Shown here: piece after piece, positions 27,253 to 30,777 of the stretch
Layout of the letters: the number at the start of each line of letters is the position of its first letter
How positions within the stretch are numbered: position 1 is the first letter of the stretch
Source of the DNA: Escherichia phage vB_Eco_F31
Direction: 5' to 3' (one strand)
Sequence record: OP870147.1
DNA: 64,000 nt
Notes under the pieces: generated by a model
Told to the model about the DNA's origin: nothing
What the model saw: only the letters and a program-made list of their open reading frames with translations
Database searches by the model: none
Position numbers and translations under genes: made by a program

Positions 27253-27435
27253 TTATAGTGAATTCACGTAGTCAATGAGTTCTTGTTCTTTCCTGTCAAA
27301 TGATTCCAACAATGCTTGATATTCTTCGTCCGTCAAAGGAGCATATTCATCATACGCATTGGTGGCTGCTTGCTCATCCAATAGGTCATGGATAAGTTCA
27401 AACAGTTTAGTTTTCTCTTCTTTAGTCAATTTCAT
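27253..27435 (-). CDS. hypothetical protein
   Basis: 60-aa acidic ORF. Confidence 0.45.
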   Translation of the reverse strand: MKLTKEEKTKLFELIHDLLDEQAATNAYDEYAPLTDEEYQALLESFDRKEQELIDYVNSL

Positions 27436-27659
27436 TTAGGTTCACCTTCTTTAACGAAATCTGGGTAAGGGTAAAATCCTGAGTAAAACCCTTCACCTTT
27501 ATGATTGCTACAACCTTTGTTCGAACAGTAACACCAATAATCAAAATCACAAGCCATTTCGTCATTGCATAAAGCAAAAACTACAGGCCATTCGCATTTT
27601 TCGCATTTAGCACCTGTAAGAATTTTTGTTTGACTCATAGCCATGTCACCTTTAAGCAA
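27432..27659 (-). CDS. hypothetical Cys-rich protein
   Basis: Several Cys pairs (CEKCEW, CSNKGC). Confidence 0.5.
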   Translation of the reverse strand: MLKGDMAMSQTKILTGAKCEKCEWPVVFALCNDEMACDFDYWCYCSNKGCSNHKGEGFYSGFYPYPDFVKEGEPK

Positions 27660-27862
27660 TATTCTTCTACATGTTGTTTACGGCCTTTCTTATCAATAAA
27701 GGTATATTCAACGAATGTTCCGATGTAGTCTTTATCTACATCATGTGGACTATTAATTGGACATTTAGTACGACAAATGCGTTCCCATTGACGAATAATT
27801 ACTGCCTTATTCTTTGGATCGTATGGATGTGGATAATGTGTATTCATAATAACGGTTCCCAA
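27635..27862 (-). CDS. hypothetical protein
   Basis: 75-aa ORF. Confidence 0.5.
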   Translation of the reverse strand: MGTVIMNTHYPHPYDPKNKAVIIRQWERICRTKCPINSPHDVDKDYIGTFVEYTFIDKKGRKQHVEEYCLKVTWL

Positions 27863-28341
27863 TCAACAATCACAATTTCTAGTTTAGTAGAATACGTATC
27901 TAAAATCTCTTCGATGACATCCCAGTTTCCACCACCAATACCTGCACCAATTCTTGGCATATAAATTACAGGCTTTATTATCTTATTCTTTCCGAATTCA
28001 TTTAATTCTATTATACAATTCATTAAAGCAGAGTACTCAAAATTAGGTCCCGGCTCAAACTGTGTATAAAGATTAAAGCAATAAGCTTTATGGGTCTTAA
28101 AATATTTTTCATAAACCGAATAAGTCCCGAGTTTAGACTTGTCTCCGAATTCGGTTTGAAGTTTATCGGCTTCTAAAATTTTTGGATAAGCCTTTGCTAA
28201 TTGGCCTGCTACACCGGCGCCCATTGTATGAAAACAATTACACCCATGAGCAATATTATTACCTTTAGAAAACAGGGCGACAATATCGCCCTTGATATAG
28301 TTTTTAATCACTTGCTGCAAGTCCTCTATTATAAGAGTCAA
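27844..28341 (-). CDS. macro-domain-like protein (possible ADP-ribose binding/hydrolysis)
   Basis: KGDIV...NIAHGCNCFHTMGAGVAGQ and PRIGAGIGGG resemble macro-domain Gly-rich motifs. Confidence 0.55.
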   Translation of the reverse strand: MTLIIEDLQQVIKNYIKGDIVALFSKGNNIAHGCNCFHTMGAGVAGQLAKAYPKILEADKLQTEFGDKSKLGTYSVYEKYFKTHKAYCFNLYTQFEPGPNFEYSALMNCIIELNEFGKNKIIKPVIYMPRIGAGIGGGNWDVIEEILDTYSTKLEIVIVDWEPLL

Positions 28342-30200: not shown

Positions 30201-30414
30201 AAGGAATTTCCTCATCGGTGGCAAGGTCATATTCGACCAATTGGATAGGCTCATTAATACCATATCCACGTACAGTGATATCAGTTGTCGGATAGTTTCC
30301 AGTAATATCACCCATTCTAAATGCTTCAGTGAATGATTGCTCGCCTGAGCAACTAAACCAGGCGGCAAAACATTTTAAAACACCTTCAGACCCTTCTATA
30401 ATCAATTTAGCCAT
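30190..30414 (-). CDS. hypothetical protein
   Basis: 74-aa ORF; ATG overlaps stop of grcA-like gene. Confidence 0.45.
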   Translation of the reverse strand: MAKLIIEGSEGVLKCFAAWFSCSGEQSFTEAFRMGDITGNYPTTDITVRGYGINEPIQLVEYDLATDEEIPYVD

Positions 30415-30777
30415 TATAGACTCTCAGTAAAGGTACGAGCGATAACGTCGCGCTGCTGTTCCGGAGTCAGAGAGTTAAAGCGAACTGCATAACCGGATAC
30501 ACGGATGGTCAACTGCGGATATTTTTCTGGATGCTTAACTGCATCTTCCAGAGTTTCACGACGCAGAACATTAACGTTCAGGTGTTGACCACCTTCAATT
30601 TTAACTTTAGGGTTGATGTTCAATTTCAATTTCACGGGCATTCAAACCGTAGAAAATTTCCGGGTCTACAATAGCGTCTTCTTTAAAAGTCTTAGAGACA
30701 ATAATCCGGGCTTGAGTACCGTCTTCAAAATAAATAGTGCCTTTGTGTGTGCCTTCAAGAATTTGATATGCTTTCAT
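30414..30777 (-). pseudogene. grcA: grcA/yfiD-like glycyl-radical cofactor gene, split by a 1-nt frameshift
   Basis: N-part ATG 30777 to stop 30607 (56 aa); C-part 30641..30414 in the +1 frame ends [33 protein letters not shown]; the two parts align colinearly to GrcA across the shift. Confidence 0.6.

Follow-up and report, generated by a model that had tools for sequence, protein, structure and literature searches.

A close counterpart of the locus analysed here is the tk.4 gene of bacteriophage T4, which emerged as the single significant match when a T4 transposon library was screened on E. coli expressing DarTG2 (bioRxiv 10.1101/2025.11.20.689424). T4 became sensitive to DarTG2 once tk.4 had been cleanly deleted, and the same preprint of November 2025 introduced the name adfM, for anti-DarT factor macrodomain; the preprint precedes peer review, and the hydrolase activity of Tk.4 was deduced in it from structural similarity to DarG alone (bioRxiv 10.1101/2025.11.20.689424). 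Moreover, loss of the NADAR factor AdfN leaves both T4 and T2 resistant to DarTG2, and DarT2 is known to modify thymidine (PMC11825919). A different phage macrodomain, gp104 of PhiKZ, strips DarT2-made ADP-ribose from DNA in vitro (PMC13309987). Among cellular enzymes, SCO6735 of Streptomyces coelicolor carries Gln85 at the position of the DarG/TARG1 lysine, and its Q85A variant no longer hydrolyses thymidine-linked ADP-ribose on DNA; Gln85 is held in position by Asn27, the G128E exchange cripples the enzyme and, when His24, Asn27 and Gly128 were mutagenised, the changes at Asn27 and Gly128 lowered activity (PMC9411070).

We analysed a stretch of 64,000 nucleotides from Escherichia phage vB_Eco_F31 (OP870147.1; hereafter the window), which is at least 99% identical to Mosigvirus phages, e.g., JK42 and NicPhage—Mosigvirus being the RB69 group. 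A minus-strand gene in this window is the orthologue of T4 tk.4 (adfM), as borne out by full-length identity and conserved position: its product is 98% identical to RB69 Tk.4 (NP_861803) and 85% identical over 155 aa to T4 Tk.4 (NP_049723), and it occupies the tk.3–tk.4–vs position within the conserved gene order tk, small ORFs, tk.4, vs, vs.1 and regB. The protein length (155 aa in T4 and 154 aa in RB69), the placement between tk.3 or tk.2 and vs, a start codon overlapping vs and a hairpin in the 5' coding region are shared with the T4 and RB69 genes. Compared with T4 Tk.4, the window gene starts with GTG instead of ATG and its product displays 24 substitutions, e.g., GIGGGNW for GIGKGNW of T4, none of them at the conserved active-site residues. 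GenBank entries describe the family variously as 'phosphatase; Tk.4; contains A1pp phosphatase motif', 'macro domain protein' or 'Poa1p_like family', and tblastn against 50,697 phage records detected relatives in 2,798 of them. The first-pass annotation, made from the letters of the window, recognised the macrodomain and missed that it is the long-annotated Tk.4. Within the 64-kb window, a search for other macrodomain genes or DarT2 genes returned none.

Two further observations concern the neighbourhood of the gene. Three small ORFs (60, about 68 and 70 aa) lie between tk and the macrodomain gene (27253-27847, minus strand), where RB69 has only tk.2; the middle one (27432-27638, minus strand) encodes a cysteine-rich product (CEKCEW...CNDEMACDFDYWCYCSNKGC) that looks like a small zinc-binding protein. 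Additionally, a single extra A near 30613-30614 (window CATCAACCCTAAAG versus JK42 CATC-ACCCTAAAG) breaks the vs.6 homologue (30414-30777, minus strand) into ORFs of 56 and 75 aa. In T4, RB69 and JK42, the vs.6 product is a GrcA-like protein of 120 aa, an autonomous glycyl-radical cofactor; in the window, the glycyl-radical motif RVSGYAVRF is located in the downstream fragment. The split could be a sequencing error, mark a frameshift site or indicate a pseudogene.

The open reading frame 28341..27844 on the minus strand was confirmed, and it contains the glycine-rich strings KGDIVALFSKGNNIAHGCNCFHTMGAGVAGQ and PRIGAGIGGG quoted in the first-pass annotation. Its length of 165 aa is counted from an in-frame TTG and corresponds to a longest-ORF extension with 10 extra N-terminal residues, whereas homologues, the T4 ATG and database annotations favour a protein of 155 aa. 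Homologues outside the closest relatives (those at 95% identity or more) align from residue 11 onward only; the T4 ATG coincides exactly with the window GTG at 28311-28309; a GAGG element precedes the start in both phages; and the annotated proteins of T4, RB69 and JK42 measure 155, 154 and 155 aa, respectively (for the JK42 homologue, at 99.4% identity, the annotation gives 468 nt). On these grounds, together with the Shine-Dalgarno spacing, the TTG start was rejected in favour of the GTG, and the coding sequence probably comprises the 155 codons given in Table 1, with the ten codons upstream probably lying outside the translated macrodomain protein. The overlaps at both ends of the gene—with the vs stop codon and with the start of the tk.3 homologue—are a usual arrangement for T-even early genes whose translation is coupled.

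Table 1. Position and description of the features in and around the macrodomain gene of the window.
Feature	Position	Strand	Remarks
Probable macrodomain CDS (Tk.4/AdfM orthologue)	27844..28311	-	GTG start, TGA stop, 155 aa
In-frame codons (ten) upstream of the GTG, up to TTG; probably not translated with the macrodomain	28312..28341	-	Within the 3' end of vs
Shine-Dalgarno-like element GAGG	28323..28326	-	11 nt upstream of the GTG; read from the sequence; same element and spacing in T4
Stop codon (TAA) of vs, the gene upstream	28304..28306	-	Macrodomain start overlaps vs by 8 nt (GTGATTAA)
GC-rich hairpin (8-bp stem, 3-nt loop)	28274..28292	-	Codons 7-13 of the macrodomain CDS; starts 12 nt after the vs stop
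HGCN motif (His22-Gly-Cys-Asn25)	28237..28248	-	Corresponds to His24/Asn27 of SCO6735 and Asn22/Asn23 of DarG and PhiKZ gp104 (mutagenesis of counterpart residues: PMC9411070; PMC13309987)
MGAGVAG, first glycine-rich loop (GxG loop after strand 2), predicted to contact ADP-ribose phosphates	28204..28224	-	From alignment
NxYTQ motif (Asn80-Leu-Tyr-Thr-Gln84)	28060..28074	-	Gln84 in the column of TARG1 Lys84, DarG Lys80 and SCO6735 Gln85
PRIGAGIGGG (Pro119 to Gly128), second glycine-rich loop, predicted to bind diphosphate	27928..27957	-	Gly124 corresponds to SCO6735 Gly128
Start codon (ATG) of the small gene that follows (tk.3 homologue)	27845..27847	-	Overlaps the macrodomain stop as ATGA

The strong, terminator-like hairpin near the beginning of the coding sequence reads AGGGCGAU-AUU-GUCGCCCU followed by GUUUUCU, with a U-rich run extending to about 28264 (pattern scan). 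Its folding z-score is -2.8 in the window and in RB69 and -0.7 in T4. Five T-even lineages (the window, RB69, T4, teqdroes and JS10) share the stem nucleotide for nucleotide, even though the encoded proteins are only about 57% identical, and it has been lost in a Klebsiella phage. Such an element may act as a terminator or attenuator between vs and tk.4, or as a stabiliser of the vs mRNA. A 'terminator' is annotated in the close relative vB_EcoM_NBG1 somewhere under a 1.3-kb match, which does not imply that it overlaps the position of the hairpin. Sigma-70-like sites showed no excess between 26000 and 31500, with 18 found against 20 expected from shuffled sequence. In RIL-seq of phage T2, the host small RNA ArcZ was found to pair with the tk.4 transcript—mislabelled there as 'putative thymidine kinase'—and no change in protein level was seen in a ΔarcZ host (bioRxiv 10.64898/2026.06.19.733364).

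The window protein is a macrodomain of the ALC1-like class that comprises TARG1, DarG, Poa1p and SCO6735. It scored 28.4 bits with the Pfam Macro profile (PF01661), whose gathering threshold is 22, at an E-value of 1.7e-6 and with coverage of positions 2-117 of the 118 in the profile; it matched PHROG 335 with an E-value of 2.7e-66, and the solved macrodomains BT1257, Poa1p, SCO6735, DarG and TARG1 were matched by sequence with E-values down to 2e-10; a profile of 96 homologues raised these five matches to between 7e-18 and 4e-11. The AlphaFold2 model built from the 96-sequence alignment (pLDDT 96, pTM 0.91) adopts a three-layer α/β/α fold with a central mixed sheet, and a Foldseek comparison agreed with a macrodomain. 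In addition, MGAGVAG and PRIGAGIGGG aligned with the loops that form the ADP-ribose cleft of TARG1, DarG, SCO6735 and BT1257. The closest structural relatives belong to the ALC1-like class and not to the MacroD or viral nsP3 types, and the best matches are all glycohydrolases. The macro-domain call of the first-pass annotation, for which a structure prediction had been proposed as a check, therefore holds at the level of sequence, Pfam profile and predicted structure alike, with no different fold in the model. Its remark that the usual 'NAAN' is replaced was likewise correct: this MacroD-type signature is missing as a consequence of membership in the ALC1-like class, and its replacement is the normal state in TARG1, DarG and Poa1p.

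What the present analysis adds to the published picture is an assignment of the active site, which appears to be of the glutamine type found in SCO6735 and not of the lysine type found in DarG. Conservation was assessed across 96 phage and bacterial homologues, down to 37% identity, in which Gly23, Asn25, Cys26, Gly33, Ala35, Asp49, Gly62, Asn80, Tyr82, Gln84, Pro119, Ile121, Gly122 and Gly124 are invariant and His22 is near-invariant (at least 90% conservation). Gly31 and Gly33 recur in all aligned reference macrodomains and are near-invariant or invariant among the 96 homologues. In the HMMER profile alignment, Gln84 stands opposite Lys84 of TARG1 and a Gln of BT1257. Similarly, MAFFT aligned AHGCN, NLYTQ and IGAGI of the phage protein with AHVCN, NMIGQ and IGCGL of SCO6735 (chain of PDB 5e3b), motifs in which residue counting places His24 and Asn27, Gln85, and Gly128, respectively; the column of Gln84 holds the lysine of the (F/I)(P/T)TK motif in DarG, TARG1 and PhiKZ gp104. 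A low-confidence stretch of the hhalign comparison with PhiKZ gp104 shifted NxYTQ by one residue, unlike the placement of Gln84 by HMMER and MAFFT. Since His22, Asn25, Gln84 and Gly124 match His24, Asn27, Gln85 and Gly128, the window protein carries SCO6735-type and not DarG-type residues.

Comparison with individual members of the class delineates the phage family further. SCO6735 and BT1257 of Bacteroides (PDB 2afc/2fg1) are glutamine-type, ALC1-like proteins with 23-30% identity to the window protein; the phage family has its own invariant Asp49 and Tyr82 (NxYTQ as opposed to NMIGQ) and lacks the KGLPP or KGAP loop that follows the Gln in these proteins. Moreover, SCO6735 has a housekeeping or stress role in its own cell and is no counter-defence factor of a virus. 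In human TARG1/OARD1 (PDB 4j5r/4j5s), catalysis relies on a Lys84/Asp125 dyad, which is replaced by Gln84/Gly126 in the window protein. Yeast Poa1p (PDB 6lfq), in turn, has a small-molecule substrate and no counterpart of the Gln.

The sole NCBIfam and PADLOC matches of the window protein were to DarG, with E-values of 5.5e-8 and 2.5e-9, respectively. The score against the DarG2 model (NCBIfam NF048014) amounted to 32.4 bits against a cut-off of 250, and the match covered the macrodomain part alone (positions 4-146 of 338). DarG2 macrodomains (M. tuberculosis, 5m3i; T. aquaticus, 5m31/5m3e; T. africanus DarTG, 7omu) possess the catalytic Lys80, are followed by a C-terminal domain that binds the toxin and are encoded beside darT, whereas the window protein has Gln84 in the column of Lys80, consists of a single domain of 155 aa without the C-terminal DarT-binding domain, and is flanked by vs and the tk.3 homologue with no adjacent darT. 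A captured DarG antitoxin was rejected as an identity for the protein because the lysine and the second domain are missing and the score falls far below the cut-off of the DarG model.

Bacterial relatives point to a different source. Relatives are encoded at 353 bacterial loci, of which 80 were examined: all 80 relatives are single-domain proteins with HxCN and NxYTQ-like motifs, and phmmer searches of the surrounding 5 kb with P. aeruginosa DarT2 as the one query, by which rare homologues may be missed, detected no DarT2 homologue. The neighbours of these bacterial Tk.4-like genes are mixed housekeeping genes (25 commonest Pfam families). As the relatives are single-domain proteins with no DarT2 nearby, the phage lineage looks recruited from a stand-alone bacterial macrodomain and not from DarG. 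Of 142 ORFs directly flanking the bacterial genes, 4 encode a NADAR domain, which represents the second type of DNA ADP-ribosylglycohydrolase; this hints at occasional pairs of macro and NADAR proteins.

PhiKZ gp104, also designated AdfM, resembles the window protein in being a phage-encoded, stand-alone macrodomain directed against DarTG2 that removes ADP-ribose from TNTC DNA in vitro (PMC13309987); it differs by its DarG-like FPTK lysine motif and by its import into the phage nucleus. BLASTP aligned merely 23 residues of the two proteins (E 6e-4), and hhalign gave a probability of 96% at 21% identity; accordingly, they are remote homologues only, and the idea of one and the same protein was rejected. 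The name AdfM has been given independently by two groups to these remotely related macrodomains, which may cause confusion (PMC13309987; bioRxiv 10.1101/2025.11.20.689424).

Taken together, we propose, with a probability of roughly three in four, that the window protein acts as the Tk.4/AdfM orthologue by removing DarT2-made ADP-ribose from phage DNA. DNA de-ADP-ribosylation appears to be the best explanation because the T4 tk.4 knock-out is sensitive to DarTG2 and because DarT2 modifies thymidine. The DarTG2 phenotype is known from T4, from whose protein the window protein differs by 15% with the conserved residues unchanged. The tk–regB block, for which early expression is assumed, would supply the macrodomain protein ahead of phage DNA replication or while it is under way. 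Host DarT2 would place ADP-ribose on thymidines of single-stranded DNA and thereby block replication; the ADP-ribose moiety would then be bound in the cleft between the MGAGVAG and PRIGAGIGGG loops, and hydrolysis of the ribose–base bond would restore normal DNA. The reaction probably follows a lysine-independent route as in SCO6735, with Gln84, held by Asn25, orienting the distal ribose for water attack. By analogy, we infer both that the window protein hydrolyses thymidine-ADP-ribose and that Gln84 is essential for this activity. The suggestion in the first-pass annotation that the protein could reverse ADP-ribosylation by host toxins thus gains support from the genetics of T4, the T4 orthologue being 85% identical and located at the same genomic position. 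The idea is not new, however, because Tk.4 has long been annotated in GenBank and the T4 phenotype was described in the November 2025 preprint; the gene is real and functional, yet already annotated and described.

Other activities have to be weighed against this reading. The historical 'A1pp phosphatase' designation, found in GenBank and PHROG labels, would make the protein a Poa1p-like ADP-ribose-1''-phosphate phosphatase that clears a by-product of RNA splicing or repair—an unlikely function in our judgement, notwithstanding the resemblance of HGCNC in the window protein to HSCNC in Poa1p. Two residues mutated in Poa1p structures, His23 and Ser30, align with His22 and Thr29 of the window protein if an inferred three-residue chain offset is assumed. 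The invariant NxYTQ is replaced by L-F-T-S-S in Poa1p. Weak phosphatase activity on Appr-1''-p in vitro is common among macrodomains without being their biological role. T4-type RNA repair, by means of Pnkp and RNA ligases, heals 2',3'-cyclic phosphate ends and is not known to use a Tpt1/KptA 2'-phosphotransferase, so there is no obvious source of Appr-1''-p. The sole knock-out phenotype reported for T4 is, in addition, specific to DarTG2 (bioRxiv 10.1101/2025.11.20.689424).

Protection mainly by binding and blocking DarT2, i.e., an antitoxin-like sequestration in place of adduct hydrolysis, finds a precedent in the catalytically dead variants of SCO6735 (Q85A), DarG (K80A) and TARG1 (K84A), all of which inhibit DarT in vitro, with SCO6735 being the strongest of the three (PMC9411070). 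Since SCO6735 also inhibits DarT by binding (PMC9411070), part of the protection afforded by the window protein could be non-catalytic. As the main mode of action, sequestration is nevertheless improbable: the single 155-aa domain lacks the DarT-binding C-terminus of DarG, the residues corresponding to the catalytic residues of SCO6735 are invariant or near-invariant in the 96 homologues, which suggests selection for enzyme activity, and bacterial relatives are not adjacent to DarT at the 80 loci.

Removal of ADP-ribose from proteins or RNA, either tuning the modifications introduced by Alt, ModA and ModB (including RNAylation) or reversing protein- or RNA-directed toxins of the host, also seems improbable as the principal role. 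T4-type phages do ADP-ribosylate host proteins; however, Alt, ModA and ModB modify arginine, and no macrodomain is known to cleave arginine-linked ADP-ribose. On these chemical grounds, the macrodomain protein is unlikely to undo the phage's own arginine ADP-ribosylation, and the tie to the ADP-ribosyltransferases of T4 hinted at in the first-pass annotation found no support. A wider substrate range is suggested by TARG1 and SCO6735, close structural relatives that hydrolyse Glu/Asp-linked ADP-ribose on proteins (PMC9411070), so DNA may not be the sole substrate; likewise, the presence of Macro domains in 41% of myoviruses, as reported in a published survey (PMC9503650), points to roles wider than one defence system. 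Against this stands the observation that, among the reported conditions, the T4 gene is conditionally essential only with DarTG2 (bioRxiv 10.1101/2025.11.20.689424). Degradation or sequestration of ADP-ribose-derived immune signals, e.g., the cyclic ADP-ribose isomers of Thoeris, is highly improbable and the earlier proposal that the protein processes signalling nucleotides was unsupported here, as the best matches are all glycohydrolases and none of the macro domains known to bind signals showed a specific resemblance, and as no genetic evidence points to it and the DarTG2 phenotype suffices to explain retention of the gene.

The proposed DNA de-ADP-ribosylation by the Tk.4/AdfM orthologue leaves the published basic picture unchanged, and the residual interest of the locus resides in the glutamine-type mechanism and in the existence of two AdfM lineages. 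DarTG is widespread in pathogens and has to be overcome by therapy phages; a macrodomain carried by essentially all T-even-like phages helps to predict host range in this regard. Whether the chemistry is Gln- or Lys-based further bears on the design of mutants and inhibitors and on the expected substrate range. A possible, if doubtful, extension is that T4-type AdfM proteins constitute a separate, Gln-based lineage of DNA de-ADP-ribosylating enzymes derived from stand-alone bacterial macrodomains, acting as broad erasers across toxins, with the hairpin perhaps gating their expression relative to that of vs. Such breadth may follow from a chemistry that is independent both of the DarG lysine and of toxin binding. 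If true, one small gene would disarm several ADP-ribosylating defence systems, with RNA or proteins perhaps also serving as substrates.
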